Virus record (IMG/VR): IMGVR_UViG_3300027969_000044
Location: 1-64,000 of that record
Reading direction: 5' to 3' (one strand)
Length of the DNA: 64,000 nt
Origin: a virus
Both the position numbers and the translations under genes were made by a program. The notes under the pieces are model-generated. The model saw only the letters and a list, made by a program, of their open reading frames with translations, did no database searches and was not told the DNA's origin. This document shows positions 6,729 to 57,645 of the stretch, piece by piece; position 1 is the stretch's first letter, and each line of letters begins with the position of its first letter.

Positions 6729-6740
6729 GTCGATACTATG

Positions 6741-6778: not shown

Positions 6779-6786
6779 GCAAAACC

Positions 6787-7872: not shown

Positions 7873-7892
7873 ACTACCGATAAAAGTTCCAG

Positions 7893-7927
7893 TGCTCCTA
7901 TATTAAATATTTGCACTTATGGGAGCA
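7893..7927 (+). promoter_or_regulatory. Hairpin with TAAATA in the loop and SD in the 3' arm
   Basis: TGCTCCTATA (7893-7902) pairs with TATGGGAGCA (7918-7927, one G-U); TAAATA at 7904-7909; ATG at 7933. Confidence 0.7.
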
Positions 7928-7932
7928 ACATC

Positions 7933-8247: not shown

Positions 8248-8276
8248 TTGACACGATAAATAAAGATCTATACAAT
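8248..8276 (+). promoter_or_regulatory. sigma70-type promoter for queD
   Basis: TTGACA (8248-8253), 17 bp, TACAAT (8271-8276); TAAATA also occurs in the spacer (8257-8262). Confidence 0.8.
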
Positions 8277-8363
8277 AATTGTTAGCGGTCTTTTAACGTC
8301 ATTCACCCCGCTTTATAAATTCTGCATGTCGTCAAACTTGCTACCTTATAAAGGAGACTAGAG

Positions 8364-11849: not shown

Positions 11850-11885
11850 TATTTACATTAAGATTACAAAACAGTTTGGTAAATA
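11850..11885. promoter_or_regulatory. Divergent pair of late-type TAAATA promoters
   Basis: TATTTA at 11850-11855 (minus) and TAAATA at 11880-11885 (plus) between divergent genes. Confidence 0.6.
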
Positions 11886-11917
11886 AGATGAACAGCACTT
11901 ATTGTGAGAGACTACAC

Positions 11918-14900: not shown

Positions 14901-17900
14901 TCAGTGGCGGAACTGGATATAGTGAAGCATACGTTCAACTAGACAAAGGTACTGGTACTGGTGTCGACAACAGCTTAAACTCGTTAAAGAATTTAACTGA
15001 CGGCATTGGTAGTGTTGTTGGCGGAAACCCAGATTTTAACCCTCCATTGTACAACGATGAGATGGACTGTTTCTTAATGAATGACGCTAACGTTATTCGT
15101 TATGTAAGCTGTCAAGGACATGGCGGTTTCATGAAGGTACTTGACCCCGAAGGTCAAGTTCTTGCTAAATCACCGTATACACAAACAGCATCGTCATTTA
15201 GTCGTAGTAAAAATAGACAAGTGTTCTCTGGAGGTATGTTAGTTGACGGCTTTGCTGGTAACTTACAAATGACCCCTAGACGTAACAGTCAAAATAATTT
15301 AGAAGCAGAAGCAGACTTAGAGACTGGAACACTGACTAAGATTTTTGTTGAAGGACTAAAACGCAAGCCACAGACTCCAACGTTTTTCCTACATCAAGGT
15401 ATTACATTTGAAGTTAACTTTATTAGTGAATTCCAGTTAGACAGTAGTGGAGTAACGTATCAGGCAACACTAAATCTAAACCCAGCTCGTCCTGGAGGAT
15501 TTTCTTCAGGTTATATTAGTGCTACGGGTTTCCAAGGAAGTAAGACACTTCCAGTATCGTTAAGTAGCCCAACGGTACCGGGAGGTGTTAAAGCCGTCGG
15601 TACAATTCAAACTGACGGTGCCGGTGCTCTAGTTGGGACTGGAATTACATTTACTAACCCAGGTGTTGGTTACGTTAATACTGCCGCTACTGTGGTAATT
15701 GGTGGTGCTATTATCAGCTTCCCAATTGATGAGAGCGGAAGTGTTGCTACTGGGTCTGTACAAATTATTAGCTCCGGTACTGGCTACACTAATGGAATGA
15801 CAGTTAACTTTGCTGCATCGGGCGGCACTGGCGGAGTAAGAGCCAATGCTACTGTTATTGCAGCTACAGGTATTGGCGGTATTACAGGATTCAATTGGGT
15901 CAACACAGGTAGTGGTTATACAACAAGTCCGGACTATTGGTTCGGTACTGGATGGAATCAGCGCCTTGCAATTACCAATGGTTTCATCGGAACACTACCA
16001 AGCACTATCGAAACGATCACTGCCGGTAACCGTTCTATGTTGGCAAACGACTTTACACAGGTTAACGACTTAGGCTACGGTATTTTTGTAACCAACGGTG
16101 GCTTCATGGAAAACGTTTCCATGTTTACATACTACTGCTGGACTTCATACTATGCTCTAAATGGTGCTCAGATTAGAACTATTACAGGTTCTAGTGCCTA
16201 TGGTAATTACGGTTTAGTTGCTGAAGGAAGCGATCCTTTAGAAACTCCTATTGCTCTAAAGACACTATCAGACACTAATCAAATTGTTAATTTTAAAAAC
16301 GCAACAGGTTATACCAACGTAGCAGGAGCAAGTATTGTTTATGCTGTTGTTAGTAACTTTGATCCATATGGCAAGAGTGAAGTTGAAGTAAACCATTACG
16401 GTGTTCGCAAAATTTACACTATTGTTAGCGCAACAAGGATTCCAGCAGGCTCTGGAATTCCAAGCAATTACTATCTGTTTAGTTTAGATACCAATGGAGA
16501 AAAGTGGTTCCAAACAATGACCGATGGCGAGGTATTAAACGGAACGTATCGTATCAAGTTTCAACAGAAGTTTAGTGGATTAAATCCAAGTGTTCTAACA
16601 CGTACTGCTACAGTTATTAACTACAGCGAAGATCCTCAAACAACTTATAAAATATCTAGTTTCTCTTATCAAGGCAACGATATTACTTTAGCATCGAGTA
16701 ACAATGCTTACAACTATATCAGTATCCAACCTTGGGTAGAAAGTATATATCGTCAAGGTATCTACAATGTTACTAAAACTGGTGGAACAGGGTACACAGC
16801 TGGTCAGGAAGTCACACTAACATTTAACACAATAACTCCTGTTACAGCCTACGCACAATACGCATACGCAAGCACAACTGAATCAACGTCAAGCGTTATA
16901 ATTACAAATGCTACCGGACCGTTACATGTTGGTATGTTAGCAAACAGCGCCGACCTTGTTAATAACCGCGTTACTTGGGTCAACACTTCAACAAGTAGTC
17001 CAACAAGAATTGGACTAACAACTGCTGTTAAAAATATAACTACTATTTCCCAAATTACATTTACAGGTACACGAGCAGTTGCCAAGGGAACGGCTAACAG
17101 TAGCGGAGTAATTAATTCAATTACAGTTACAGAATCTGGCATTGGATATTCTGCCGACGACAGTGCGTCGGGCGGACCGTTACCAGCTACAGCAAGTTCT
17201 GGTAACTTAGGTGTTACTGCCGCTAAAATAGCGGGCCTAGCTAATACTACAGTTGTTAAAATTAATCAATTGAAGGCAGCAGACTCGGCAAGAATTTTAG
17301 CAGGGTTGGCAGCAAGTACTCCATACTATTATATGTTTGGATATGACGGCTTCTTGTTTAAGATTACAGGGTATCGCTCCCCAACAACTACAGGCCAACC
17401 CTGGGCAGAAATTACTATTCAAAGAATTACGCAGGCTGGCGCAGACATAACTCCTAACGGGTTACCGTCAGAGATGATGGCAAACAACTTGTACGCAGGG
17501 GTAATGCGTAATCAAGATGCAGCTATTACAGTTAAAATTTCTACGCTACGTGCTACATCGCACGATATGGTTGACATTGGTACTGGTGGCTATGCAAGTT
17601 CTAAAATTCCAAACGACTTGTTTGGACCTCCGTTGAGTGCACCAGCAGGTTCAACATCTGAAGTAATTGAACTTAGAAAAGGTCGTGTATTCTTCGTAAC
17701 TACTGACCAAGACGGAACATTTAGTGTAGGCGGTTACTTGATTGTTGATCAGGCCAAGGGACAGGTAAGTTTAAATGCGCCTGTTGCTCTTGCCAACTTA
17801 CCAAGTATTAAATTACAGAAAGGTCAATTAATCGACGACTTTAGTGCTGACTCAGCACTAACTGGAGAAAGCAATAGTACTATTCCAACAGAACGTGCAA

Positions 17901-20900
17901 TTGTTCAATTCGTTGAAAGACGTCTAGGAACAAGCCGATCTGGTGCCGGCACAACATTAAACTTAATTGGACCAGGATATCTAGACTTAACTGGTGTACA
18001 GGGAATGAAAAATCGTTTGAATATGAATTCAAACTTGATTCAGTCATTATCTAATCCAGGTAACTCAGATTATGATGCTACAAACAAATACTACGTCGAT
18101 AACAGATTACACCTAGACGGAACTAACGCAGTCTGGGCCGCAGACGCAAGTGTATCATTCCCGGGCGGTGCCCATCCAGAATGGGGCAAGATGCGTGGAC
18201 CATTGTGGGCAAGTGCTCATCCAGTTGCTGGCGATCCTGCTTTACAAGTACCAACTAAACGTTATGTTGATAAAGAAACACGCCAACTATCAACATTAAG
18301 TGATGTTGTATTCACAGCTCCTCAAGACATTGACCTAGTTGGTTTTAGTTCTACAATGTACTCCGAAAGTACAGCAACTAACAAACCAATATGGCATAAC
18401 ACTAGACAAGTTGTTAACTTGGCCAATGATGTTACCCTACCGGTTAATACTCCTGGCAATATAGGCGGTGGTAGTGATGTTGCGTTTACAAGAACAGCCA
18501 ATACACTAACTATTAAATTAACGGGTGCTTCTGCTAGTGGAGTGTACGGTGGAACACTAGATGCTAGCAATCCTATTACTGACTATCATGTGAATAGTGC
18601 GGCTCAAATTCGTCAATACAAGTTATTGATGACCGAAGCTAAAACAACTGCTACTAATTTATCAACTATTGCTTCTCAACAAGGAAGACAGGCACATCTA
18701 GGTGTAAGTGTGTATGATAGCACAATGTTCTCAGTGACCAATGGTTATGTAACATTAGCTGATAGTACATTGCCAACGAACGGTATTGTACTAAGCAAAC
18801 TACAACAAATTCCTGCTAACGGAATTGGATCTGGAAACGCAGGCGGTCTTCTTGGTAGTGTACTAGCAACTGCCGCTAACGTTAGTATTTTAACTTCTGG
18901 AACAGTAGTAACATTCCTACAAGCATTAACTAAGGATGGACGTCAGACACTAACTGGAAACTTAACACCCGAATTTGACGCAACTGTTGCCGCTGGTGTA
19001 ACTTTAGGTAGTGTTTCAAGAACATTCAAAAATGTCTTTGCTGACACATTTACTGGAACAGCAACAAAAGCAGTTGCGTTATTAAGCAATATTACTCCAC
19101 ATATGTATGTTGAAGCAAGGGTGGCAACATCAAACGGCAGTATTGTACAACGTAGCGCAACTGGTAATATAACAGGTGTATACCTTGTTGACGATAGTGG
19201 ATCTATAGCGCCTGCGACTAATGAATCTCCAGATGTCGGAACTACTACAAAACGTTTCAATAACATCTACACTAAAACTATCAGTGCTGGCAGTAGCTTC
19301 AGTGGTAACTTATTTGGTTCATGGACACTAACTGGTGTATCAGGTAGCCGACCAGAATTACTAGGTCCAGATAATGGAGTACCGGGAACTGGTGCCAATA
19401 TCGGTCGTGATAACGCTGTTGGTCGAATCAATACAGTTTATACTAGAACACTAGTAGCAGAAGGCGCTAATATTGTAGGAATGACCATTACAAACGTGTT
19501 AAACGGATCTAGCGCAGTCTTTTCCGGTAATGTTACAGCAGGTTCACTGACACTGAACACTACTGCACTAGAGATTGGACAAGGTGGTACAGGTGGTCGA
19601 GATGTTGGAACAGCACTTCAAAACTTATTGCCAACTGGTATAAATCCAGGAACGGTATTGACCTTTGGTGGGTCTGGAAATTATTATTGGGGTGCCGGCG
19701 GTGGCGGCGGTGGGGACTCGGTTGGCACAGAAATTACTACATCAAGAAATTACTTCACTGCTGGGACAGCAAATGGTACAGGGTACAACGGCGATCTTTA
19801 TAACTTTACACTTCCGTTAGGAGCAATATACACAGCCGGTCAAGGTCAGCTAAGAGTCTATATTAACGGTGTACGTCAGTTTGGTACTGAAATTACTGAA
19901 ACTAGCGGAGGGTCAACTAGCCCGTTAACAGCGGCAACATTTAGGATTCCGTCTGGAACTACCGCTGGTGATAGCATTATGGCTGAAATTGATGCTTACT
20001 ACTCATATCCAACCACTGGCGCGTCAATTACATATAGCCCAGTTGGCTCAATGAACGCAACGTACAATACTGTACAAAAGGCTATTGACTATATTGAAAA
20101 CGATAAGATACGAAAGGTTGGTGGCACCTTAACGGCCGCGGCCAGCAATGGTATTGGGCTTACTATGGGAGCCGGAACTACATTACAGCTAGCGGCTGGA
20201 ACAATAACTGTGCCAACAATGAAAATTCCATCAGGTGCGTTATTAACAACACCTCAAGCAGGTGCTGTGGAATTTGACGGTAGTTTGTTATACGCAACAA
20301 TAACTTCAGGAAATACTCGCAAAACAGTAGCTTTCCAAGACTGGGTTGGCGCACAGGGATTTATAACACTAACAAGTTTAAGTGTTGGATCAAATGCTGC
20401 AGCAAGTGGTTCAGGTGGAATAGGATATGCCAGCGCAACAGGCATCTTTACATATACTCCACCAGACCTAAGTAGCTACCAAACTAAAGCTGGATCGGTT
20501 TATTTAGGATCAACTGCTGTGCCATTAAATCGTGTTAGCGGTTCGTTAGTGTTAGCTGATGTCAGTGTAGCCAGTGCTACAACTGCAGGTAGCGCAGATG
20601 CGTTAGTTATTACAACTGACTATCAATTAGGAAGTTTAGGAGTTGGAAAGGCGGCACCGGGAAGTAACAGCATTGCAGTTAAAGGTGGTATTACAGCCGA
20701 AGGTGATATCACAGCATATTACACTTCAGACTCTAGACTAAAAACTAAGATTGAATCGATCACTGGAGCACTAGATAAAGTTTCTAAACTAGATGGTATT
20801 ACATTTAATTGGAACGAACAAGCCGACGGTAAAGATCAGACACGCAGAGAAGCTGGTATAATTGCTCAACAGATACAAGAAGTTCTTCCAGAAGCAGTAG

Positions 20901-21016
20901 CTGAAAGAGAAAACGGAATGTTAGCTGTTCGTTACGAACAAATAGTTCCACTATTGATAGAGGCTATTAAAGAGCTAAGGGCCGAAGTTGACTTTTTAAA
21001 GAAGGCAAGGAAATAA
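11918..21016 (+). CDS. Giant tail fibre/baseplate protein (~3030 aa) with C-terminal peptidase S74 chaperone
   Basis: N-terminal INIG...NDGTGDTIRDAFDKVNSNF baseplate-attachment motif; G.GY...P repeats; ATK.YVD repeats; C-terminal SDSRLK...GIIAQ..Y..IVPLLIEAIKEL; start moved to ATG 11918. Confidence 0.88.
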   Translation: MANKKIINIGNQSNDGTGDTIRDAFDKVNSNFDDLYNVAGLGDGLRFVKLREAPATLSSSTILGINTSATKIVQRTLVASTGVQITLTDDSIIIANTASNLKSDANPVLGGDLDGLFSHKGIKFSEPTNDYDTVTKKWVYDNFLNRDAKYEKDDTVPPAYFGNPVATAEGSTLRSNPIALTTATKAGHLVNKEYADRKISLKGAYSVDPATNTVNPAMGTMTGPLVLFRDPITQDDVDFGGKIAATKSYVDSSSFVSAVNFFVATTGRDNRTDIPSFKKGRALAYAFKTIGQAGKAAEEMLAISQVVLGPYQKLITTNNGLADVTVSNIVETSPYVAGAKRISVGWSGGEGKGTDAYANGSLFPGCYILGESTGAIGLVEKIGYTTGPNYENYDIVPVDYAKTIVSKLTQIQAQGNVILQFQTPNLVNIPEFWKGYIFKVDASVGGGEGQIVDVGYYTDPVTQDVYDRITVNFTTPLGNTNNIDGDKWHVYSGYFQLGERLRWGQRQDKTQITIVIESGEHLENYPVRLSRNVSIRGDEFRRSIPKPATFVNSDLSTISVSPWANIYFRRDTQTDGLLISQLNKDVDYAANEGGILTATPDGTENNRDTGVVTFTVSQTINGIPQPGYSLPSSWKGKVFVGNGGQGEILSVTANVFTVNLAQNSSFERKLTSSSASVGNQWHVYNPVNFGYHYLRDAKRPINYVIKNQAGNYLTSARLLALNKGYIQAEIGAYIDAKIALGVGIWAGFSLTTLQKQKCVRDVGTIIDAICADLDAGNISNCLTVADSYRNVPTVQNYELLQTVDAIAKIGELAQRVVQNIPTGEGQGINSYSTKAQTFDRTTYQSDMAVIRPTIGYALDPNNINIIDEGLGYQFPPTISFVGGGYSTIAKATANIDNDGKITGLTFTDVGAGYTSAPQIVVIRNQTGLPAVEAEIEIPLAPTGTIKSVEIVQPGRGYYSTPGVKVVGNPGASSGLITITTGTVGPYTVVTSANLVSGGTGYSEAYVQLDKGTGTGVDNSLNSLKNLTDGIGSVVGGNPDFNPPLYNDEMDCFLMNDANVIRYVSCQGHGGFMKVLDPEGQVLAKSPYTQTASSFSRSKNRQVFSGGMLVDGFAGNLQMTPRRNSQNNLEAEADLETGTLTKIFVEGLKRKPQTPTFFLHQGITFEVNFISEFQLDSSGVTYQATLNLNPARPGGFSSGYISATGFQGSKTLPVSLSSPTVPGGVKAVGTIQTDGAGALVGTGITFTNPGVGYVNTAATVVIGGAIISFPIDESGSVATGSVQIISSGTGYTNGMTVNFAASGGTGGVRANATVIAATGIGGITGFNWVNTGSGYTTSPDYWFGTGWNQRLAITNGFIGTLPSTIETITAGNRSMLANDFTQVNDLGYGIFVTNGGFMENVSMFTYYCWTSYYALNGAQIRTITGSSAYGNYGLVAEGSDPLETPIALKTLSDTNQIVNFKNATGYTNVAGASIVYAVVSNFDPYGKSEVEVNHYGVRKIYTIVSATRIPAGSGIPSNYYLFSLDTNGEKWFQTMTDGEVLNGTYRIKFQQKFSGLNPSVLTRTATVINYSEDPQTTYKISSFSYQGNDITLASSNNAYNYISIQPWVESIYRQGIYNVTKTGGTGYTAGQEVTLTFNTITPVTAYAQYAYASTTESTSSVIITNATGPLHVGMLANSADLVNNRVTWVNTSTSSPTRIGLTTAVKNITTISQITFTGTRAVAKGTANSSGVINSITVTESGIGYSADDSASGGPLPATASSGNLGVTAAKIAGLANTTVVKINQLKAADSARILAGLAASTPYYYMFGYDGFLFKITGYRSPTTTGQPWAEITIQRITQAGADITPNGLPSEMMANNLYAGVMRNQDAAITVKISTLRATSHDMVDIGTGGYASSKIPNDLFGPPLSAPAGSTSEVIELRKGRVFFVTTDQDGTFSVGGYLIVDQAKGQVSLNAPVALANLPSIKLQKGQLIDDFSADSALTGESNSTIPTERAIVQFVERRLGTSRSGAGTTLNLIGPGYLDLTGVQGMKNRLNMNSNLIQSLSNPGNSDYDATNKYYVDNRLHLDGTNAVWAADASVSFPGGAHPEWGKMRGPLWASAHPVAGDPALQVPTKRYVDKETRQLSTLSDVVFTAPQDIDLVGFSSTMYSESTATNKPIWHNTRQVVNLANDVTLPVNTPGNIGGGSDVAFTRTANTLTIKLTGASASGVYGGTLDASNPITDYHVNSAAQIRQYKLLMTEAKTTATNLSTIASQQGRQAHLGVSVYDSTMFSVTNGYVTLADSTLPTNGIVLSKLQQIPANGIGSGNAGGLLGSVLATAANVSILTSGTVVTFLQALTKDGRQTLTGNLTPEFDATVAAGVTLGSVSRTFKNVFADTFTGTATKAVALLSNITPHMYVEARVATSNGSIVQRSATGNITGVYLVDDSGSIAPATNESPDVGTTTKRFNNIYTKTISAGSSFSGNLFGSWTLTGVSGSRPELLGPDNGVPGTGANIGRDNAVGRINTVYTRTLVAEGANIVGMTITNVLNGSSAVFSGNVTAGSLTLNTTALEIGQGGTGGRDVGTALQNLLPTGINPGTVLTFGGSGNYYWGAGGGGGGDSVGTEITTSRNYFTAGTANGTGYNGDLYNFTLPLGAIYTAGQGQLRVYINGVRQFGTEITETSGGSTSPLTAATFRIPSGTTAGDSIMAEIDAYYSYPTTGASITYSPVGSMNATYNTVQKAIDYIENDKIRKVGGTLTAAASNGIGLTMGAGTTLQLAAGTITVPTMKIPSGALLTTPQAGAVEFDGSLLYATITSGNTRKTVAFQDWVGAQGFITLTSLSVGSNAAASGSGGIGYASATGIFTYTPPDLSSYQTKAGSVYLGSTAVPLNRVSGSLVLADVSVASATTAGSADALVITTDYQLGSLGVGKAAPGSNSIAVKGGITAEGDITAYYTSDSRLKTKIESITGALDKVSKLDGITFNWNEQADGKDQTRREAGIIAQQIQEVLPEAVAERENGMLAVRYEQIVPLLIEAIKELRAEVDFLKKARK

Positions 21017-45950: not shown

Positions 45951-46793
45951 ATGACAGATTATTACCACGCCCTTGGTGTTCAAAAGGGAGCTTCAGATGA
46001 TGAGATTAAAAAGGCTTATCGCAAACTGGCGATGAAGCACCATCCTGACCGCGGTGGCGATGCATCTGAATTTCAAAAGATACAAGAAGCATACGCCACA
46101 CTTAGTGATCCACACAAAAGAACAGAGTATGATAACCCCACTCCACAGTTTGGCGGCGGATCGGGGTTCCCTCCCGGATTCGAAGAAATGTTTCGAAACG
46201 GACAATTTGGAGATATGTTTGGAGGAGGTAACCCATTCTTTGGAGCAGGCTTTGGACGACAACCTCGACAATCAAAGAATAGAGACATAAGCCTCGAAAC
46301 ACAAGTTACATTAGAAGATGCCTTTTCCGGCAAGACAATTATGGCGAACATAAATTTGCCTAGCGGAAGAGAGCAAGTACTAGAAATTAAAATACCCCCC
46401 GGAATTAGCACAGGTCAACGCCTAAGACTACAAGGAATGGGCGATGATTCAAATCCGCATTTAAACAAAGGTGACATATACATTACCATTCATGTAGCAA
46501 GACACAGTACATATGAAAGAGAAGGCGATGATTTAATTACAGAAATTACTATTTCGGTCTGGGATGCTATGTTAGGAACCGATACAACTATTAAAACTCT
46601 CGACAACAGACAATTACAAGTAGGAATTCCAGCAGGAACGCAACCGGGTAGTACATTACGATTAGCAGGATACGGAATGTCAAACATACAAGATAGTCGG
46701 TTTAAAGGAAATATTTTATTAAACATTAATGTTAATGTACCTACTAATTTAACTGAAGAACAAAAAAATCTAGTTAAACAACTTAAGGCGTAA
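45951..46793 (+). CDS. dnaJ: DnaJ-class co-chaperone (class B/CbpA-like, no Zn finger)
   Basis: [24 protein letters not shown]-rich region, C-terminal domain. Confidence 0.93.
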
Positions 46794-46801
46794 ATATCGA
46801 T

Positions 46802-47305
46802 ATGCTAGAAATTAAAAAATTCCCCGACCCAATTTTAAAAGAACGTCTACAAGACTTTGATTTTGAAAATCCAGTAATGGATCCTGTAGAACTTGAACGC
46901 GAAATGTTAGCAACTATGTTTGCCAACAACGGTATCGGTCTTGCAGCAAATCAAGTTGGGATTAATGCCCGCGTGTTTGTAATGGGTTCTAAAGAAAACT
47001 TTTTAATGGCTAAAGCGTACTTTAATCCAAAGGTGCTTGCCAATACAGATACACTACAAGAACTGGAGGAAGGATGTTTGAGTTTTTCCAATATTTTTGT
47101 TAAAATAAAAAGACCAGATGCTATTAAGGTTGAATATCAAAATTCAAAAGGTGAAACTGAAACTTCAGAATTTAGTGGGTGGGACTGTAGAGTGTTTCTA
47201 CACGAATTTGATCATTTGGAAGGTATTACTTTCCAGGATCGAACTAGCCAACTTAAATGGGCATTAGCAATTAAGAAATCAAAACCTAAAAGGAAAGTAA
47301 AATAA
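46802..47305 (+). CDS. def: Peptide deformylase
   Basis: GIGLAANQVG, EGCLS, HEFDHLEG. Confidence 0.96.
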   Translation: MLEIKKFPDPILKERLQDFDFENPVMDPVELEREMLATMFANNGIGLAANQVGINARVFVMGSKENFLMAKAYFNPKVLANTDTLQELEEGCLSFSNIFVKIKRPDAIKVEYQNSKGETETSEFSGWDCRVFLHEFDHLEGITFQDRTSQLKWALAIKKSKPKRKVK

Positions 47306-47306
47306 T

Positions 47307-49595
47307 ATGATATTGGAACCAAACAGCGATCTTGAACAGATTTTTGAAAGAGCAGTTAATCTTGCCATTAAGAATCAGCACGAGTATATAACACTTGAGC
47401 ATTTCTTACACAGCATGGTCGTTGATCAAAAGTTTGGAGCATTGCTCAAGGACTTTGGAGCAGAGGTAGCTGACCTAAAAGCTAACCTAGAAAACTTCAT
47501 CGATAAAGAACTAGACGATATCAAGGTAGTTGCTAAAGATCAAAAGCCAAAGAAAACAAACACAGTTGAGCGTATGCTTAATCGTGCGTTTACACAGGTA
47601 TTGTTTAGCGGACGTAATGTAATTGATCCAGTTGATTGCTTTATTAGCCTGTTTGCCGAAAAGAAGAGTTTTGCCAACTACTTTTTACGTAAAGCTAAAG
47701 TAGACAAAGATGCGTTTATTAAATGGATTAATGAAGAAAATTCTAAAGACGAAGAAGAAGGCAGCGAAGGCGGCCGTGGTGGTGGTAGAGACTTAGATCG
47801 TTTGATTGGAAAGTATTGTGTTAACCTAACACAAAAAGTAAAGAACAAACAAATTGATCCTGTTATTGGCCGCGAAAAAGAGATCGAAGAAATTCAACTG
47901 GTACTTGCTCGCCGTACAAAGTCAAACGTTATGATGATCGGTGATCCGGGTGTAGGTAAGACTGCTATTGCTGAAGGTCTAGCACGTAAGATCTTTGAAG
48001 GTAGCGTTCCTAAATTTATTTTAAATCACACAGTTTATAGTCTAGACATCAGTGCTATGATCGCAGGTAGCAAATATCGCGGTGACTTTGAAGAACGTTT
48101 GAAAGGTGTTATTAAAGCACTTGAAAATAAGAAAGACGCTATTTTGTTTATCGACGAAGCACACATGATGAATGGTGCTGGATCAGCAGGTAGTGGTTCT
48201 AATGACATGTCTAATATGCTTAAACCAGCATTGGGCAAAGGTACTATTAAAGTTGTAGCAAGTACAACATGGGAAGAGTTCCGTAAACACTTTGAAAAAG
48301 ATCGTGCGTTGATGCGTCGATTCCAGCGTGTAGTTGTTAACGAACCTAACGAAGCTACCGCCATTAAGATCATCAAAGGTCTTAAAAAGTATTACGAAAA
48401 ACATCACGGTGTTAAGATTACAAATCAGGCCATTATTGATAGTGTTAAGTATTCTATCAAATACATGACTGATAAGAAGTTGCCAGATAAGGCAATTGAC
48501 TTAATTGACTGTGCGTGTGCTCGCTTTAAGGTTAGAGATCAGGAAGCAGGTATTGTTGATCACGACGAAATCTTGTTTGAAGTTAGTAAGATCGCAAACT
48601 TGCCTTTAGATCAAATTGCATCTAAAGAAAACAAGAATCTTGTTAACCTTGAAAAGAATATGCGTGGTAAGGTGTTTGGTCAAGAGAAAGCAATTGAAAT
48701 TCTGCTTGATAAAATCTTTATCGCACAAGCAGGGTTAAAGAGTATTAACAAACCAGTTGGTAACTTCTTGTTTGTTGGTCCAACTGGTGTTGGTAAAACT
48801 GAAACTGCTAAACAATTAGCAAGTAATATGAGTGTAGAACTTGTTCGCTTTGATATGAGCGAATTCCAAGAACAACATTCTGTTGCCAAGTTTATTGGTG
48901 CTCCTCCGGGATATGTGGGCTTTGAAGACAACGCAGGTCAGTTGATCACTAAACTACAAGAACATCCTAACTGTATCTTGTTACTTGACGAGATTGAAAA
49001 AGCTCACCCAAGTGTAGCAAACGTTCTACTACAACTTATGGATAACGGTTATGTTACTGGTTCAAATGGAAAAGTAGCAGACGGTCGTAATTGTATTTTG
49101 ATTATGACCAGTAACCTAGGTGCCGCTGATGCTGAAAAGAACGCGGTAGGATTTGGCAGTTTAGAACGTGATGATGACAGCAAAGATGCTATTAACACAT
49201 TCTTTAAACCCGAGTTTCGGAACCGTTTAGACGGCATTATCAAGTTTGGCAAGTTGGATCAAACTACTATGGTTAAGATTGTTAAGAAGTTTATTGACGA
49301 ACTTAATTCATTGTTAAAAGATCGCCATGTTCATGTTAAGCCCGATGCTGACGCAGTTGAGCTATTGATCAAGAAAGGCTTTAACAGTAAAATGGGCGCT
49401 CGTCCACTAGCACGTACTATTGACGACTTAATCAAGAAGCCGTTAAGTAAGCAGATTCTTTTTGGCAACTTACAAAATGGCGGATTAGTAGAAATACTAG
49501 TTAAAGGCGATGACCTTATGCTAAATTACATCGAAACATTACCAGTTGTTGATGTGAAAGCCGAAGAGATACAAATTGAAGACGCTGGAAACTAA
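47307..49595 (+). CDS. clpA: ATP-dependent Clp protease ATP-binding subunit (ClpA-like)
   Basis: N-domain HEYITLEH; Walker A GDPGVGKT and GPTGVGKT; no ClpB M-domain; ClpP-docking loop AVGF; GARPL. Confidence 0.93.
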
Positions 49596-50764: not shown

Positions 50765-51154
50765 ATGAAACTTCTCGAATTCTTCGGAAAACCTATAGAA
50801 ATACACCAGGATAAAAACGATTCCCGTAAACCGGGAGAAGATCCTAAGTTAAATCGCGAAGAAGAAGATCAGCTTGCTAACGATATATTAGAGTATATCC
50901 TTAACAACGACGAGCTACACAAAAAGCAGTTTTTACCCGTAGCAAGAAAACTCCACAAAAACCCAACAACACATCACAAGCCTGATGTATGGCTACCTTT
51001 AGTAAACAAAGGATGTATGGAGTTTTACAAAGAACGAGATATGAGTGGCGATCCAATGGATCTATTCAATAAAGAATTTAGGTCTGACTTATGTAAGAAA
51101 TTTTCAGACCATAACAAACACATCCTCATGGGTGAATACAATCTCGGAAGATAA
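50765..51154 (+). CDS. Hypothetical protein with MKLLEF leader (candidate internal head protein)
   Basis: 129 aa; TAAATA at 50707-50712. Confidence 0.75.
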   Translation: MKLLEFFGKPIEIHQDKNDSRKPGEDPKLNREEEDQLANDILEYILNNDELHKKQFLPVARKLHKNPTTHHKPDVWLPLVNKGCMEFYKERDMSGDPMDLFNKEFRSDLCKKFSDHNKHILMGEYNLGR

Positions 51155-51157
51155 CCC

Positions 51158-54100
51158 ATGCTATTAAATGAATTTTTTAAAAGATCATTAACCGAGGGCG
51201 GAAATCTTGCCATTGGTCAAGATCAAGCGCAAAGCATTGATTTAAAAGTACACAACAGAGCTTTTATAGTTCCTATACTTACAAAACTATTATACGGAAT
51301 TAACGATGGGTTTGCCGCAGTTAATCAAAAGCCATTGTGGAATCCCGCCCTATTACAAAAGGGAGAATTCCTAAGCGGCTCTAGTTTACATTTCTTCAAC
51401 ACAAAGATTCCCGACGAGCAATTTGAAAAAGTTAAACCTAAAGTAGGCGACATTGACACACAAGTTGATAAGTTAATGGAGAAAGAACTAGAAGGATGGT
51501 TAAACTCTGTTAAGGGTAAACTTATTGGCGGAGGTAAGTTAATTGGCTTTGAGAGAGGCAACGAGCAATACAGTAGTCTATGGGAATTACAAGACCCTCC
51601 TATTAAAATACAAATTGACTTAGAGTTTGTTGCGTTTGACAAAGAAGAACCAACAGCATGGAGTAAATTTAGTCACTCAAGTGATTGGGAAGATATACAA
51701 GCAGGTGTCAAAGGTGTATTCCACAAATGGTTGATACAGTCATTTACAGATCTAACTACTCGTGATTTCTTATTGCGTAAACTAGTAGGTCGCGGCAAAG
51801 CCCGTGTTGAGCAAGATGTACCTGCCAATGACAACTTATTATCCTTTGCTGTTAGCAGTAAAGAAGGTGGCGGACTACGTCCTAAGTACGAGCCAGTGAC
51901 AGACGAAGCTGGACAGCCGTTAATTGTAGACGGGCTACCTGTTATGCGAGCATTGCCTCCTGCGGGATACGAACAAGACATTGGTAAGATATTTGCTCTA
52001 ATCTTTGGAGACAGAATTGATCCTAAGAAAGCAAAACAACTAAGCACTAAGTTTTGGTCATTTACTGGCTTGCTAGATGTAATGACACAGGTGTTAAGTC
52101 CTGAAGAACAACAACAAGTTGTACAGGCATTTATACATAAACTGTATGACAAGGGCGCACAAGGTCTTTATAAAAATGATCCAGAACGTGATGCCGAAGA
52201 AAAAGATGCCGCTATGGCCAAGATGCTTGAAGTATTAAAAATAGCGCCTCCTCCAGAACTAGCACAGATGAAGCAGTCATATCAAGCAAATTACAGAATG
52301 ACTACAAATGAAAGCCTGCGTGAAGCTGAAGAACCAGCACCAGTTAAGGCACAGCTACGCAAAGGTATGCCACACTTACACGATCTAAAGGCTCCTGATT
52401 TTTTAGACCTATTAGATGAGATTCACGACGGCAACGGTAACTTCAAGTTACAAAACGTTCCATTAAATGTCAAAGTAGACGGCTTTGGTGGACGATTTGG
52501 TAAAGATGCTAACGGTAAACCATTCATGGGTACTAGCCGAACAGAGCCACGTTACGAAGCCAGCTTTGTCAAGTATCATCAACAAAAGGGCACAACAGAT
52601 CCAGAGATCTTAGGTCGTGCTCAAATGTTTGACGACTTGTTTAAAGAAATGATGAACGCTATTAAACTAGTCGATGGCAAACTAGGCCCAGACTTTTTAA
52701 TCAACAAACAAGTAACTTGTGAAGTATTGTTCTTACCATTTGCTACACAAACTGACGAAGGTCGTTTAAAGTTTGTGGGCATTGAATACGATCAACTACC
52801 ACAAGGTGTACAACTGGCACTAGTTCCATTTCATGCTGTAGAAGCAGATAGTGGAGAGCCTGTTGAAGATCCAGAATTTATTGATAGCTTACTTGAAGTA
52901 GGTAATCAAGGTAGTGTTATGTTTATTAACAATAGACTAGCACAGAAAGAAGGACTTGACGTTACAGAAATTATCAATGTATTAGATAACATTGAAGAAC
53001 TAAAACAAATTGTATCTGATACAGCAGGCAAGCGTGACCGCGCTAGTCTACAGTTAAAGAAAGAAGTAGAAGAAAAACTACAACCTATTAAAGATCAATT
53101 AGAGCAAGCAATTATTAAAGATCCTAACATTATTGGAAAAGATATGTTAGGTAAAGACTATGAAGGCATTGTTATTAACAGTCGTCTCGGTCCTATCAAA
53201 ATTACCAGTCAAGAACAGCGTGATGTTATCAGTGCCAAGTTAGATGCTAAGAAAAATGCTCGCACAGAACGTCCCCGTGATAATCAAAACAAGACAGCAG
53301 TAGTTGCCATTGGTAGCTTTGTTGGACACAAGGGTCATCAAGAACTTTGGCAGTATACACAACAAGAAGCCCAAACACTGGGCGGCGATCCGTATTTGTT
53401 CATCGGTAATGCCGAAGGCAAAGACGATCCTATTCCTGTTCCCGACAAACTTAAAACATGGCACATGTTGTATCCGCAGTTTGCCAAAAACATCAGCGCG
53501 GTTACGCACGAAGGTGGAAGCATTATGCAGAAGATTAAACACGAGTTGATTAATCCTTTACCAGGCAAGCCTCCACGTTACGACAATATTGTTATTATGG
53601 TTGGCGAAGATCGTAAAGACTTACCGTTAGGTAAAGCTCTAATGAAAGCTGTTAATAAGTTTCCAGGATACGAGCACGTTAAAGTAGACTTAAAAGTTAC
53701 TCCACGTGGTCAAGGAGTAAGCGGCACTGCTCTTAGAAATATTCTAAAGACAGGCAACCCTAACCAACAATACACATTCTGGAATGACACATTTAACGGT
53801 GGCAAGTTTGGATCACAACAATTAACTCCAGAATGGATTAAACACCTAATGGATGTAACCAAGAAAGGTATGGGCATTACTACCCCTTCAGTTACAGCAC
53901 CAATTAAGAAACAGGAACAACCAACTATGGCTAAACCTCAACAACCAGTACAGCAACAGCAACCAGAGCAAGAGCCGTTAGCTGAAAGTATCCGTAGAGA
54001 AATTATGATTACTCGAGCAGAGATTGCTTGGCAGAAAGAATTGTCGGAAGCAAGGATGAGTGCTGCCGTTAAACTTCAACGAGCCTTTGATAGAGAGCGT

Positions 54101-55633
54101 TCTAAGAGTGACGCTAGTCGTCAACGTGCTGACGCGGCCAAGGCAGCGTTTGAGAAAGAGTGGAAAGCTAAACAAGAAAAAGAAAAGCAAGGTGTGGCAG
54201 AAGATTTAGAAACAGGACATGTGCAAATGCTTTTACATAAAGCATTACAGGCACGCAGAGAAGGCAAACCATTGCAAAGTGTAATGCGTAAAGAAGAAAT
54301 TGCATTATTATCTATGTTGCAAGGAAGTGGAAAACTACAAGGTATGGTTAAAAATAAAAGTGTAGGCGAGGCGCCAATTGAAATGGATCCTGCAGAACCA
54401 ATGAATCCTACAATCTACGGACATCAAGGAGTTAACTCTGCCGAATTAAAAACTCGCATGATGCGAGCTCAAGGACAATTAGCAGACCTGGCAAAGAGAG
54501 CACAAAACGCTAGCCCAATTGAATGGGAAATAATTACACGTAATTTTAAAGAGTTGTCAATGAACATTGAACAGATTCGTCACGCACTAGAAGAACTAGC
54601 TAAAGTTCGCAAGCGTGGTGGGATTCGATCTAGAGGCATTGATAAAAATATTGGTGAGCAAGGTGTGGCGGAAGGCTTATTAGACCCTTCTAAAAGAACT
54701 CAGCTTATTCGTTTCCTAGCAAAGAAAATGGATTGGGAAGTTAACTATCTCGAACTTGCTACTGATCATGAACTTATCAAATGGTACAAAAAAGTACAAG
54801 CCGGTCAAGATCCAATGAAGGAAGATTCGGTAAATGAATTAGTTGGTTATAAAAGCGATAAAAATTATCTAGCGGTAGGTACCCATAAACGATACGATGT
54901 ATATGTGGGTAAAAAGAAGTTTAATAATTTATACTTTATTGCAATTGCAGAAAATCCAAGAACATTAGATGCTAAATTTAAAGCCAAGGGCAATACTCCA
55001 CAAGAGGCAGTAAATAATTTAAAATTAGAAATTGATAAAGAAATTGATGTTGCTACCAAAGTTAGTGGTGCGGCTATATTAGATTTTAATGTAGATTTTG
55101 TAAAAGAAATATTAGAAATGAGTATTGATACGTTTTACGCTAAAATTATTTCAGGTCCTAAATTAGTAATAGCAGGTAGAGAAATGATGGAATACCCTGA
55201 TATTATGAAAAGTGAAGGGTTTAAACCTAGTACCATTAGAACTTACAAAGGCGGAGAAGGTACTACTAAACTACCCGGAGTACCATTAAGCGCCGGAGCG
55301 GCTGCGGCTGCAAGTCTTATTGCCAACGGTAGATATGTATTAGGCGCAGAAACTACAGATAAAGACGGTAACAGAGTATTCAATTTAGAATTTGATAGCG
55401 TTGTTCAAGCATCAAACGATAAAATGAGATTAAGAGCACCTGCGGTTACTGTAGGAACTAATAGATCACAAGGTGTTGCGGAGGCCGGTAAGATTAAGGG
55501 CGCTGACGGTAAAGCCTGTTGGAAAGGTTATAAGTACGCAGGTACTAAGAACGGTAAAGACAAGTGTGTTCCAGTTAGCGAAGATGCGGAACAACTAATG
55601 GCAGGTTTTATTAAGTTGTTGGAATCAAAGTAA
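51158..55633 (+). CDS. 1491-aa modular protein: Pol-beta-type NTase, ligase-type (KxDG) NTase, HIGH-type NTase and C-terminal cassettes
   Basis: LSGSS..VGDIDTQV..IQIDL; NVKVDG..YEGIVI..IKI; IGSFVGHKGH..VGEDR..SGTALR; QGVAE linkers three times. Confidence 0.75.
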   Translation: MLLNEFFKRSLTEGGNLAIGQDQAQSIDLKVHNRAFIVPILTKLLYGINDGFAAVNQKPLWNPALLQKGEFLSGSSLHFFNTKIPDEQFEKVKPKVGDIDTQVDKLMEKELEGWLNSVKGKLIGGGKLIGFERGNEQYSSLWELQDPPIKIQIDLEFVAFDKEEPTAWSKFSHSSDWEDIQAGVKGVFHKWLIQSFTDLTTRDFLLRKLVGRGKARVEQDVPANDNLLSFAVSSKEGGGLRPKYEPVTDEAGQPLIVDGLPVMRALPPAGYEQDIGKIFALIFGDRIDPKKAKQLSTKFWSFTGLLDVMTQVLSPEEQQQVVQAFIHKLYDKGAQGLYKNDPERDAEEKDAAMAKMLEVLKIAPPPELAQMKQSYQANYRMTTNESLREAEEPAPVKAQLRKGMPHLHDLKAPDFLDLLDEIHDGNGNFKLQNVPLNVKVDGFGGRFGKDANGKPFMGTSRTEPRYEASFVKYHQQKGTTDPEILGRAQMFDDLFKEMMNAIKLVDGKLGPDFLINKQVTCEVLFLPFATQTDEGRLKFVGIEYDQLPQGVQLALVPFHAVEADSGEPVEDPEFIDSLLEVGNQGSVMFINNRLAQKEGLDVTEIINVLDNIEELKQIVSDTAGKRDRASLQLKKEVEEKLQPIKDQLEQAIIKDPNIIGKDMLGKDYEGIVINSRLGPIKITSQEQRDVISAKLDAKKNARTERPRDNQNKTAVVAIGSFVGHKGHQELWQYTQQEAQTLGGDPYLFIGNAEGKDDPIPVPDKLKTWHMLYPQFAKNISAVTHEGGSIMQKIKHELINPLPGKPPRYDNIVIMVGEDRKDLPLGKALMKAVNKFPGYEHVKVDLKVTPRGQGVSGTALRNILKTGNPNQQYTFWNDTFNGGKFGSQQLTPEWIKHLMDVTKKGMGITTPSVTAPIKKQEQPTMAKPQQPVQQQQPEQEPLAESIRREIMITRAEIAWQKELSEARMSAAVKLQRAFDRERSKSDASRQRADAAKAAFEKEWKAKQEKEKQGVAEDLETGHVQMLLHKALQARREGKPLQSVMRKEEIALLSMLQGSGKLQGMVKNKSVGEAPIEMDPAEPMNPTIYGHQGVNSAELKTRMMRAQGQLADLAKRAQNASPIEWEIITRNFKELSMNIEQIRHALEELAKVRKRGGIRSRGIDKNIGEQGVAEGLLDPSKRTQLIRFLAKKMDWEVNYLELATDHELIKWYKKVQAGQDPMKEDSVNELVGYKSDKNYLAVGTHKRYDVYVGKKKFNNLYFIAIAENPRTLDAKFKAKGNTPQEAVNNLKLEIDKEIDVATKVSGAAILDFNVDFVKEILEMSIDTFYAKIISGPKLVIAGREMMEYPDIMKSEGFKPSTIRTYKGGEGTTKLPGVPLSAGAAAAASLIANGRYVLGAETTDKDGNRVFNLEFDSVVQASNDKMRLRAPAVTVGTNRSQGVAEAGKIKGADGKACWKGYKYAGTKNGKDKCVPVSEDAEQLMAGFIKLLESK

Positions 55634-56040
55634 TGCTATTAACACAGCTATTTGAATCAGCAACTAATGACGCAACCCTAATGGATATGTTGCCTACGTT
55701 CTTACCTTTAGCTTTAGAAATTTTAGAATTACGCAACGTGCCTAATATTAAATTAGAAAAGTTTATTGACGACGAAGTACAACCTACATTTGGTAAATTT
55801 GTCAGTGATGAGAACATAATTTACTTAGGAATTGCCAACAGACACCCTGTAGATATTTTACGTACACTGGCACACGAAATGGTACATTATAAACAAAACA
55901 TAGAGCACGATCTAGATAGCGAATCAGGTCGCACAGGAAGTCCTCAAGAAAATCAAGCACATGAAATTGCCGGAGTTATTATGCGAGAGTTTAATAAAGC
56001 AAATCCAGAATTCCTAAAAGCTAGGCCATTAGAGTTTTAA
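55633..56040 (+). CDS. Zincin-like metallopeptidase (HEXXH)
   Basis: LRTLAHEMVHYKQ with downstream E (QENQA); leader MLLTQLFE. Confidence 0.75.
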   Translation: MLLTQLFESATNDATLMDMLPTFLPLALEILELRNVPNIKLEKFIDDEVQPTFGKFVSDENIIYLGIANRHPVDILRTLAHEMVHYKQNIEHDLDSESGRTGSPQENQAHEIAGVIMREFNKANPEFLKARPLEF

Positions 56041-56051: not shown

Positions 56052-56435
56052 ATGAGAGCAAACGAATTTATTTCTGAAAATCGCAAAGCAGGCAAAGTAA
56101 AGAAACGTGCCGCGGCTGTACAGCAAGGCATTAGAAAGTCTCGCGATGTTGGCGGATATGATCGTGTAAATCACATGAATCGTTTGTGGATGGCAACTGC
56201 TATGGCAGACGGCCAAAGTAAAAAAGGTGTAGATATGGATAGTTACAGTTGGATGGAAAAATACAACACACAACATCCATATACACAAGAAGAATACAAT
56301 ATGTTCAGGCAAGCAGAAAATACTGTCCCAACGGATAGTAAAGAAGTTACACCATGGACAAAGAGTGTAGAGCCAGAAGATACTTATAAAGTAAGTCCGT
56401 CCTCTACATGGAATGTTAAGAAGAAAAAGAAATGA
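56052..56435 (+). CDS. Hypothetical protein with MRANEF leader
   Basis: 127 aa; TAAATA at 56041-56046. Confidence 0.75.
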   Translation: MRANEFISENRKAGKVKKRAAAVQQGIRKSRDVGGYDRVNHMNRLWMATAMADGQSKKGVDMDSYSWMEKYNTQHPYTQEEYNMFRQAENTVPTDSKEVTPWTKSVEPEDTYKVSPSSTWNVKKKKK

Positions 56436-56608
56436 AGATTAGAGAATTATTAGAAGCGGCAAGTAGCGGAGCAACTGGCTCCGGTTCTATTGCGACCGTA
56501 ACTAATCCTGGTGGGAAACCAGCTAGTCAAGTAGGATCTCTGTTTGGTGGTACTTACGGAGAATCTAAAAAAACTAAACCTAAAAAATTTATTAAGAGAC
56601 CGCAATGA
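56432..56608 (+). CDS. Small protein with MKIRELLE leader (58 aa)
   Basis: Manual translation MKIRELLEAASSGATGSGSIATV...KKFIKRPQ; ATGA overlaps at both ends. Confidence 0.75.
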   Translation: MKIRELLEAASSGATGSGSIATVTNPGGKPASQVGSLFGGTYGESKKTKPKKFIKRPQ

Positions 56609-57645
56609 CTAAAAAAATAAAAGAAATTAGTACAGGTGACTATTACTCTAAAGCACACAAGGGGAAAATTTCTGCAGCATCTAAAATGATGTTTGCTGAT
56701 CCTGCTAAGCCAGAAGTACAAAAAGCAATGCGTGACTTTAAGAATAGAGACGCAGGAATGAAACGTGTTTCAGCAAGAAATCAAAAAGCCAGACAGACAA
56801 CTGCTGATAAGAACCGTCAGGGTGCCCTTGCAGCCGATAAAGAAAATCTTCCAGCGTTAATGGCACAGTTTCAAAAGCTAAGAGGTCAGTATGATCCTAA
56901 TTTTGAATACAGTGACGATCACAGTTTTTGGTCAAAGCAAAAAGATATCCAGCAACAATTAAGTGCGTTACAAAAACGTATTAACGATGCTGGTGGAAAA
57001 GTATCAGAGGGAACTAATCCCGAGTATGACGACGAAGCAGGTATGTCTGATAATAATCTAGAAACACTGAGAAGAACAATCGACGGCATAGATGGTTTGA
57101 TTAAGCCCGGTGATAATTTACCAGAATGGTGTCAGGAAAAAATTGCTGTTGCCAAATCTATGTTAGTAGCAGTATGGGACTACATGCAGTCCGAACAGGA
57201 AAGAGGCGCAATGGAAGGTGTTGGCGATTTAGGATATGACGCACAATCTTTAATAATGAAACTGCGACGAGATGTTGAAGAAAAAAGATTACAACCAACT
57301 CCGCAAGCAGTATTAGCGGCCGCATCAGAATTAGCAGGAGATATGAAATTTGCTCCTCAACTACTAGTTCAACAAGTCTTGGGCAAGGGTGTAGCAGAAG
57401 GCGGTGTTAAAGAATGGAAAAAGGGAGTCAAGGCTCCGGTTAAACCACGTAACTTTGTAGCCAAAAATGCGTCAACTGGCGGTGCTGGCGCACATAAAGA
57501 TAAAAAGAAAGATGCTAAACAAGGAAAAGCCAAGCATAAAAAAACTCCAGAGTTAGCCGAAACAGCAACATATGATCGTAGATTAAATGTATTATTAGAA
57601 GCGAAAATGCTAACTAGCCAAATTAGAGATTATAGAAAGAAATAA
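56605..57645 (+). CDS. Modular hypothetical protein (candidate processed head protein)
   Basis: Segments bounded by KIKE, KVSE, GAME, KGVAE and ELAE; basic C-terminal module. Confidence 0.75.
   Translation: MTKKIKEISTGDYYSKAHKGKISAASKMMFADPAKPEVQKAMRDFKNRDAGMKRVSARNQKARQTTADKNRQGALAADKENLPALMAQFQKLRGQYDPNFEYSDDHSFWSKQKDIQQQLSALQKRINDAGGKVSEGTNPEYDDEAGMSDNNLETLRRTIDGIDGLIKPGDNLPEWCQEKIAVAKSMLVAVWDYMQSEQERGAMEGVGDLGYDAQSLIMKLRRDVEEKRLQPTPQAVLAAASELAGDMKFAPQLLVQQVLGKGVAEGGVKEWKKGVKAPVKPRNFVAKNASTGGAGAHKDKKKDAKQGKAKHKKTPELAETATYDRRLNVLLEAKMLTSQIRDYRKK

Follow-up and report, generated by a model that had tools for sequence, protein, structure and literature searches.

The gene analysed here, P0001, lies at 51158..55633 on the plus strand of a 64,000-nucleotide stretch of viral DNA (the window), which is the first 64 kb of the 166,311-bp IMG/VR record IMGVR_UViG_3300027969_000044 (CheckV completeness ~46%). 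The phage is an uncultured, large T4-related (jumbo) myovirus, and the gene encodes a protein in which three nucleotidyltransferases (NTases) of different folds, designated D1, D2 and D3, lie between a short leader and a long tail. Three intact nucleotidyl-transfer active sites are shown by conserved residues and structural models, and the folds of D1 and D2 both have members that act on nucleic-acid ends. From its leader and its predicted cleavage sites, the protein is probably a processed polyprotein that is delivered from the phage head. RNA-end repair is our tentative choice of function, held with somewhat less than even confidence. The explanation as a whole, in which a capsid-targeted, cut and injected polyprotein would act as a repair kit for nucleic-acid ends, most likely those of RNA, has in our judgement an even chance of being correct. 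The parts of the gene are as follows, an arrow marking a junction or predicted cut.

51158..55633, plus strand: whole gene (P0001), 1491 aa plus stop, one uninterrupted open reading frame (ORF) in the ORF list and its translation, read as a polyprotein precursor
51158..51196, plus strand: N-terminal leader, aa 1-13, MLLNEFFKRSLTE, a putative T4-type capsid-targeting sequence (CTS) ending in an L-x-E protease site
51197..52324, plus strand: D1, aa 14-389, Pol-beta-fold NTase, with an invariant GGN at its N-terminus and SLRE↓A at its end, in a disordered linker; residues G74 S75, the triad D98 D100 D154, K185 G186 K190, and D345 K349
52325..53272, plus strand: D2, aa 390-705, ligase-type (covalent lysine) adenylyltransferase without an OB fold; residues K439-x-D-G (motif I), R446, E522 (III), F539/Y544 (IIIa), E669-G670 (IV) and K681-x-T683 (V)
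53273..53893, plus strand: D3, aa 706-912, HIGH-superfamily NTase, with no protease-type site in the linker that connects it to D2; residues G-x-F-x-x-H724-x-G-H727, D757, D818 and S855-G-T-x-x-R860
53894..55630, plus strand: C-terminal tail, aa 913-1491, with a Q/P-rich linker to PLAE↓S (aa 943), a coiled-coil-like stretch and three cassettes
54203-54673, 54674-55483 and 55484-55630: tail cassettes 1, 2 and 3, bounded by QGVAE↓ at aa 1015, 1172 and 1442

Three nucleotidyltransferase folds and their conservation

The sequence-only reading of this DNA had recognised three different NTase folds fused in one phage protein at 51197-53880. That observation was confirmed, and the interpretation placed on it was partly supported. 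The span covers the enzymatic core (aa 14-908) and omits 580 aa of tail encoded by the same gene. Structural searches placed D1, D2 and D3 each in the fold that had been named for it, from models with a mean predicted local distance difference test score (pLDDT) of 92-94. The AlphaFold2 model of aa 1-925, built on a 115-sequence alignment, had a mean pLDDT of 91.9, with disorder limited to aa 1-13, 384-391 and 917-925, and the model of D1 (aa 1-392) reached 94.4. We regard the three fold assignments as nearly certain.

For D1, an exhaustive structural search (VIA) returned Pol-beta-superfamily enzymes as all of its top matches, with Z between 7.8 and 7.0: TUT7 (7.8), Trf4 (7.6), Pol beta (7.4), OAS2 (7.3), TdT (7.2) and Pol mu (7.1), together with Pol lambda. 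Foldseek matches were weak but coherent (PolX, MenT4, ANT(2'') and PAP), and those in the ESM Atlas were to a DUF6267 cluster and to viral PolX clusters. Since these Z values are middling, the Pol-beta fold is established and the subfamily is not. A cGAS-like messenger synthase had been among the functions suggested earlier, and it received no specific support: known messenger synthases (OAS2, Z 7.3; cGLR, 7.0; CdnG/CdnE, 5.3-6.9) matched D1 no better than terminal uridylyltransferases (TUTases), PolX or other Pol-beta enzymes did, and no sequence match of D1 to cGAS/DncV-like or OAS enzymes was found.

The adenylyltransferase fold of D2 was matched over about residues 383-703 by 20 ligase entries, with Z from 10.4 to 7.7. 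The best of these was Naegleria Rnl5 (5cot; Z 10.4, 196 residues, 3.7 Å), followed by T. brucei REL1 (1xdn; 9.8), T4 Rnl2 (2hvq and 1s68; 9.6 and 9.2) and Rnl3 (9.1); DNA ligases (8.6-7.7), Trl1 and Pnkp-C (8.5-8.1) and T4 Rnl1 (8.2) scored lower. Foldseek also matched D2 to ligases, with probabilities of 0.96-1.0. In the model, motif V is followed by one helix (685-701) and then by the HIGH domain, with no OB-fold domain carrying motif VI after D2, and a long helical insert occupies aa 612-653.

The best VIA match of D3 was PPAT (3l93; Z 12.8, 151 residues aligned, 3.1 Å), and archaeal NMNAT (11.9) and NadD/FMNAT (11.0-11.6) followed. An independent search gave M. jannaschii NMNAT at Z 11.4 (152 of 164 residues aligned) and NaMNAT at 11.3, and NadM was also among the whole-domain matches (Z 11-12). 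The scores of PPAT, NMNAT, NadD and FMNAT against D3 differ by only ~1-2 Z units.

The motifs on which the three folds had first been recognised were all present, namely G74-S75, D98-I-D100 and Q152-I-D154 in D1, K439-V-D-G442, E669-G-I-V-I and K681 in D2, and H724-K-G-H727, V815-G-E-D818 and S855-G-T-A-L-R860 in D3, and their conservation in homologs was 88-100%. In the 115-sequence homolog alignment, G74, S75, D98, D100, D154, K439, D441, G442, E522, E669, G670, K681, H724, G726, H727, D818 and R860 were conserved at 97-100%, T857 at 92% and S855 at 88%. The D1 positions G74-S75, D98/D100 and D154 were invariant or 99-100% conserved among 93-107 sequences; in the model, D98 and D100 lie on strand 98-104 and D154 on strand 150-158. 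Per residue, conservation in D2 was 100% for K439, D441, G442, E522, F539 and G670 and 98% for Y544 and E669, with R446 conserved too, and in D3 it was 100% for H724, G726, H727 and R860. Motif V of D2 is divergent: K681 is invariant, and the second lysine of the usual K-x-K is replaced by T683 (98%). This degree of conservation indicates that the motifs are not chance matches.

None of this was visible to sequence libraries for the first two domains. D1 had no Pfam match, including to RlaP (PF10127), at E up to 1, nor did 93 homologs at E up to 0.1, and D2 and 32 of its homologs did not match PF09414 (RNA_ligase), PF09511 (RNA_lig_T4_1) or PF01068 (DNA_ligase_A_M). Single-sequence and profile searches with D1 and D2 found nothing in Pfam, NCBIfam or PDB sequences. 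An hhalign comparison of the D2 profile with single sequences of T4 Rnl1, Rnl2 and DNA ligase gave no alignment, a profile against one sequence being a weak test. D3 matched PHROG 3041 ('cytidyltransferase', E 1.3e-10) and had sub-threshold scores with FAD_syn (17.8 bits, cut-off 27) and the NCBIfam RibF models (21 versus 241 bits). As judged by these searches, the polyprotein domains fall outside RlaP, every Pfam ligase family and every curated HIGH family, and the Pol-beta NTase and the ligase-type adenylyltransferase define two enzyme families without a match in any sequence library.

Close full-length relatives number 729, and the 119 non-self ones listed share 54-80% identity with P0001 over the core (aa 1 to ~910); these proteins are 958-1989 aa long and come from metagenome contigs of up to ~374 kb. 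A separate all-against-library search yielded 725 cluster representatives at 50% identity. D1 is frequently found alone (~350-400 aa), D1+D2 (~680 aa) and D2+D3 (~500-600 aa) forms also occur, and P0197 joins a HIGH NTase to D1 in the reverse order. In Xanthomonas phage X1 the order of genes is D1 (profile E 2.7e-74), an unrelated gene, D2 (8.6e-41) and a PF01467 cytidylyltransferase-like gene, and genes 048-051 of Stenotrophomonas phage Moby have the same order. The existence of fusion, fission and operon forms argues that the three enzymes serve one process. With X1 and Moby, operons of the trio are available in cultured phages, so its function can be tested genetically now.

The four-gene operons of these T4-like phages occupy 5013-8362 in X1 (L002) and 2681-5798 in Moby (L012), and the last enzyme is 160 aa long. 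Three of the four genes are annotated as hypothetical, and the fourth as a cytidyltransferase-family or nucleotidyl transferase protein. The unknown gene that separates D1 from D2 was considered as a fourth common component and rejected, as its X1 and Moby versions are not conserved and have no family match. A 484-aa protein of phage phiKT1024 with a C-terminal HIGH domain was likewise set aside, being no detectable homolog of D2-D3.

A leader, conserved junctions and tail cassettes

In T4, the first ten residues of IPIII are enough for packaging, gp21 removes leaders by cutting after Glu, and Alt is cut at both ends; phages related to T4 have other proteins with CTS-like leaders (PMC9026906, PMC5694885). 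The T4 leaders (NC_000866) are MKTYQEFIAE for IPII and IPIII and MKTFKEF... for IPI. The polyprotein leader, MLLNEFFKRSLTE, resembles them, as do those of homologs, which include MKSFKEFLSLLSE, MISFKRFIIE and MKSFKEF.... It is disordered in the models and ends in L-T-E right before the invariant GGN. Of 165 distinct homolog leaders of 5-25 residues before GGN, all but two have E at P1 (163) and all but one have L, I or V at P3 (164). Ten homologs with long N-terminal extensions keep (L/I/V)-x-E↓GGN at the junction, and 36 others begin directly with M↓GGN.

A protease of the type that cuts such leaders in T4 is encoded by the same genome. The Peptidase_S77 (gp21-type) gene, at 131816-132448 of the full record (G000), scores 91.3 bits against a cut-off of 27 and sits in a canonical portal/protease/scaffold/capsid block, and a gp23 gene is present as well. 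Leaders of the type M-x-L-x-E-F-F are found on five adjacent genes (50765, 51158, 55633, 56052 and 56432), on a small gene between the portal and protease genes (G000 130336), on a 280-aa gene at 123818 just upstream of the portal region, and, in a related NCBI metagenome contig, on the genes in syntenic positions. By this shared leader, the neighbouring and head-region genes are candidates for further head cargo.

The linker between D1 and D2 is the only disordered inter-domain stretch in the model, and it contains an (L/I/V)-x-E site in ~53 of 57 multidomain homologs (SLRE↓A in P0001). In P0120 and P0130, an extra small module lies between two such sites in this linker. The corresponding figure for the D2-D3 linker is only 2 of 64 rows. 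Because the site in the D1-D2 linker is conserved and D1 often occurs alone, D1 is probably released by cleavage, and only D2-D3 looks like a true fusion. The description of three folds fused in one protein thus applies to D2 and D3 and has to be modified for D1. That the module is injected had been a guess, which comparison now favours: the CTS-like leader, the (L/I/V)-x-E↓GGN junction, the other leader-bearing genes, the gp21-type gene, and the lysozyme, LysM and VanY tails of homologs all point to it.

Within the tail, QGVAE occurs in three copies (after aa 1011, 1168 and 1438), and the whole 166 kb holds just one more, in ORF 56605. These (Q/K)-G-V-A-E copies are encoded at 54191-54202, 54662-54673, 55472-55483 and 57388-57399, all in two neighbouring genes. 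In many homologs QGVAE recurs in the variable tail, and it hardly ever occurs in the core (3 of ~150 sequences). The near-identical P0003 differs by the exact loss of the 157 aa that lie between two QGVAE sites, and metagenomes contain the identical protein along with cassette variants. The four copies differ at synonymous codons, which argues for selection on the peptide and rules out QGVAE as a DNA-level recombination signal. The portal, scaffold and capsid genes of the fragment lack it, and a general head-protein cleavage motif was rejected; going by sequence, it is the broader (L/I/V)-x-E pattern that P0001 has in common with head proteins. Homolog tails carry lysozyme with LysM, VanY with LysM, or amidoligase with another NTase. 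The tail of P0158 (aa 900-2078), which contains Amidoligase_2, a second Pol-beta NTase (NTP_transf_2) and DUF6934, suggests that tails act as a slot for extra enzymes.

The gene directly downstream, P0271, encodes a zincin-like HExxH protein with weak metallopeptidase matches. A counterpart is fused N-terminal to D1 through ...P(I/V)(S/T)E↓GGN in six homologs (P0110, P0112, P0120, P0136, P0151 and P0181). Zincin-like domains are the commonest domains of the polyvalent proteins of phages and plasmids and have been proposed to process them or to attack host proteins (PMC5512222). Either the gp21-type protease or the HExxH protein could cut the predicted sites.

In the mechanism that we propose, the leader would act like the T4 CTS and direct the precursor into the core of the prohead. 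The gp21-type protease would cut after Glu at (L/I/V)-x-E sites, so that the leader would come off and Gly14 of GGN would be exposed, D1 (aa 14-389) would be freed at SLRE↓A, and small C-terminal cassettes would be freed at QGVAE↓. D2-D3 (aa 390 to ~943) would be kept as a single bifunctional enzyme. The pieces would remain in the head and enter the cell together with the DNA.

Proposed RNA-end repair and its alternatives

RNA repair is the best match among the functions offered by the sequence-only reading, since the closest structural matches of D2 are nick-sealing RNA ligases and a pairing of a Pol-beta NTase with a ligase is known from RlaP; the trypanosome editosome likewise pairs a TUTase with REL1. 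RNA is favoured as the substrate because D2 is without an OB domain and scores higher with Rnl5, REL1 and Rnl2. RlaP is a Pol-beta NTase genetically coupled to RNA ligases (PMC7824862), and it puts one or two nucleotides on damaged RNA 3' ends before ligation (bioRxiv 10.64898/2025.12.29.696909). By analogy, and more speculatively than for the delivery steps, D1 would extend damaged 3' ends and D2 would seal them. Such an add-and-seal reaction would undo the damage done by host nucleases to tRNA or other RNA ahead of phage gene expression. D3 would make or recycle an adenylylated cofactor, or work on the same ends.

Several observations weigh against this explanation. We infer packaging, cleavage and injection from sequence patterns alone. 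The protein contains 25 (L/I/V)-x-E triplets, where ~24 are expected by chance, so that the cleavage argument draws only on the conserved position of the sites. The versions in Moby, X1 and phiKT1024 start with M↓GGN and have no leader, indicating that the enzymes need not be packaged to work. The genes around P0001 encode DnaJ, deformylase, a Clp-like ATPase and PolB, which are chaperone/protease and replication functions outside the structural module. As to function, the module contains no end-healing kinase or phosphatase, the longest structural alignments of D1 are with family-X DNA polymerases, and the gap in Z between RNA and DNA ligases for D2 is less than 2 units. A role of D3 in repair is without precedent and is the weakest point of the explanation.

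It is also conceivable, though we think it unlikely, that the module repairs DNA or protects the incoming genome. In that case D1 would act as a terminal transferase or a minimal polymerase resembling family X, with D2 as the ligase that seals DNA; entering with the genome, they would close gaps, mend nicks or breaks left by restriction, or alter the genome ends. This role retains some weight because the alignments of D1 with Pol beta, lambda and mu, TdT and ASFV PolX are long (172-192 residues) and because a cargo packed next to the DNA could well have DNA as its substrate. Among the Atlas neighbours are clusters of viral PolX and one of giant-virus ligase-PolX fusions, and the best Foldseek E-values for the whole model are with DNA ligases. 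However, D2 has no OB domain, which DNA ligases use to clamp the nick, and RNA ligases score higher. The D1 model contains no helix-hairpin-helix or 8-kDa DNA-binding domain, and RNA-specific TUTases and Trf4 give D1 its highest Z values.

Somewhat less likely again is that P0001 is not head cargo, and that its leader and (L/I/V)-x-E junctions serve cytoplasmic cleavage by the HExxH protein, or folding or regulation, of what would be ordinary early enzymes. Against this, the T4 CTS-like leader is repeated on the small head-block gene flanked by portal and protease and on gene 123818; gp21-type proteases, of which one is encoded here, are known for the P3/P1 pattern found in the leaders; and lysozyme, LysM and VanY tails fit an ejected protein. 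Placement among early/middle-type genes and the existence of leaderless versions are in keeping with a cytoplasmic role, although the alt and ip genes of T4 likewise lie outside the structural block. The zincin-like protein is linked to the polyprotein by the adjacent gene and by N-terminal fusions, and zincin domains have been proposed as processing enzymes of polyvalent proteins (PMC5512222).

The third alternative, nucleotide-cofactor or signal chemistry, appears improbable. D3 would make NAD+, FAD, dephospho-CoA or a related dinucleotide, with D1 and/or D2 using or making nucleotide signals or unusual RNA/DNA 5' caps, or the enzymes would restore NAD+ in the face of NAD-depleting defences. 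D3 has its closest matches in PPAT, NMNAT, NadD and FMNAT and could produce dinucleotides of the NAD+, FAD or dephospho-CoA kind, and the uncut D2-D3 fusion suggests coupled chemistry. The HIGH enzymes of the Moby and X1 operons carry the motif G-R-F-Q-P-x-H-x-G-H, which we take to be typical of archaeal-type NMNATs. But Moby and X1 both have NadV and an adjacent NadM-like gene elsewhere in the genome, so the operon enzyme is not needed for salvage there; simple NAD+ salvage is therefore unlikely as the purpose of D3, and the NAD metabolism suggested in the sequence-only reading is weakened as far as salvage is concerned. NadV and the Rnl1, Rnl2 and ATP-dependent DNA ligase families were not matched on the 166-kb fragment, which is only ~46% of the genome. 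The fold of D1 is common to OAS, cGAS and CD-NTases (Z 5-7), but this likeness is no better than that to any other Pol-beta enzyme, and the known relatives of D2 all act on nucleic-acid ends. Least probable of all is that D2-D3, delivered from the head, serves as an end-marking machine instead of a repair ligase, in which D3 would make an adenylylated dinucleotide of the NAD, FAD or dephospho-CoA type and pass it to D2 and, with D1 after its release, unusual 5' caps or 3' tails would be added to phage or host RNA or to the injected genome ends seconds after infection, as a counterpart of the capping and tailing enzymes of poxvirus particles.

Relation to known systems and genomic setting

As in T4 IPI, IPII, IPIII and Alt, the polyprotein has a short leader ending hydrophobic-x-Glu and a gp21-family protease is encoded with it. 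Its cargo, as with Alt, consists of enzymes, and like Alt, which is processed at both ends or at several sites, it would be cut repeatedly, as predicted from its sequence. In contrast to those proteins, the cargo here is ~1500 aa long, with three NTases, swappable cassettes and internal domain-separating sites; it has no sequence similarity to them beyond the leader, and it is known from sequence alone. Polyvalent proteins (Iyer, Burroughs, Anand, de Souza and Aravind 2017, PMC5512222) also combine several unrelated enzymatic domains in one large polypeptide thought to be delivered with DNA, and they share with P0001 the HExxH zincin link and, with its relatives, lysozyme-type domains. However, that study reports minimal Pol-beta NTases mainly in firmicute conjugative elements, and not the trio of Pol-beta, ligase and HIGH domains. 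Targeting and cutting here would apparently follow the T4 CTS/gp21 route, and P0001 does not lie with late or virion genes, as would be expected of such proteins.

The proposed chemistry is closest to the modules of RlaP (PF10127) and RNA ligase, in which a Pol-beta-superfamily NTase is likewise coupled to an ATP-dependent RNA-ligase-type enzyme (PMC7824862). In contrast to those, D1 has no PF10127 match and D2 no Pfam ligase match, a HIGH NTase is added, and the module is apparently head cargo. D2 shares with Rnl5, REL1 and Rnl2 its fold (Z 10.4-9.2 over ~180-200 residues), motifs I, III, IIIa and IV, the first lysine of motif V and the lack of an OB domain after motif V. It differs from them in an identity of 10-12%, with no sequence-level match even by profile, in T683, in the insert at aa 612-653, and in its C-terminal partner, which is a HIGH NTase rather than the Rnl2 C-domain or the Rnl5 N-domain. 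D3 has the whole-domain fold (Z 11-12.8, ~150 residues, rmsd ~3 Å) and the H-x-G-H and S-x-T-x-x-R motifs of PPAT, NMNAT/NadD/NadM and FMNAT, but its sequence scores are far under the family cut-offs and it is fused to a ligase.

P0001 thus combines probable delivery of the T4 IP/Alt kind, the architecture of polyvalent proteins and a proposed chemistry of the RlaP and ligase kind, a combination undescribed in the literature searched, which also yielded no description of the Pol-beta/ligase/HIGH trio or of DUF6267. If our explanation is true, giant T4-related phages of a very common lineage equip their capsids with enzymes that process nucleic-acid ends and send these into the cell along with the DNA; the polyprotein family comprises hundreds of metagenome sequence clusters. 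The T4 capsid-targeting route, so far associated with small inhibitors and a single ADP-ribosyltransferase, would then extend to a large modular enzyme payload with plug-in cassettes. The conserved leader and cut sites would also offer a natural design for putting foreign proteins into large phage heads.

The assignment of the phage to the T4-related group follows from its genes for baseplate wedge, long tail fibre, clamp loader, family-B polymerase (PolB), portal, gp21 protease, scaffold and gp23 capsid. The nearest relatives of its PolB are in Sinorhizobium phage Phosso (50%) and then in the 350-380-kb Rak2/121Q-like phages (45%), and a Megablast search with 15 kb of the window found no close relative among phage records. 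A 3046-aa ORF at 11876-21016, ahead of the baseplate and tail-fibre genes, had suggested an N4-like phage; this was dropped, as the baseplate, tail-fibre, clamp-loader and PolB genes are of T4 type. Directly upstream of the polyprotein region, 45951-49595 encodes DnaJ (J domain and C-terminal domain), peptide deformylase and a 762-aa protein with two AAA+ domains that resembles Clp or ATP-dependent proteases. This block is syntenic with the polyprotein in the related contig L004 too. The start of P0271 overlaps the polyprotein stop by one base. The immediate neighbours of P0001 are as follows.

50765..51154, plus strand: upstream neighbour, 129 aa, with a leader of the same type, MKLLEFF...
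55633..56040, plus strand: downstream zincin-like HExxH (HEMVH) gene P0271, 135 aa, with the N-terminus MLLTQLFE
56052..57645, plus strand: three more downstream genes, ORF 56052 with the leader MRANEFISE, ORF 56432 with the leader MKIRELLE, and ORF 56605, of 346 aa, with a GVAE site

Cassette 3 (aa 1443-1491, 55484-55630) is a small Cys-bearing module, CWKGYKY...CVP, with weak phrog_4359 matches, and ORF 56605 contains a related lysine-rich module at 57440-57550 that matches phrog_1359/DUF7230. After its leader, the 58-aa ORF at 56432-56608 continues with AASSGATGSGSIAT, which closely resembles the stretch after YLAE in the gp23-like protein (G000 133586-134761), AATSGATSSGNIAT. The AASSGATGSGSIAT stretch is also like the start of a 746-aa DUF6321 protein (L004 14069-16309), and the stretch common to the three proteins may be a shared post-cleavage motif.

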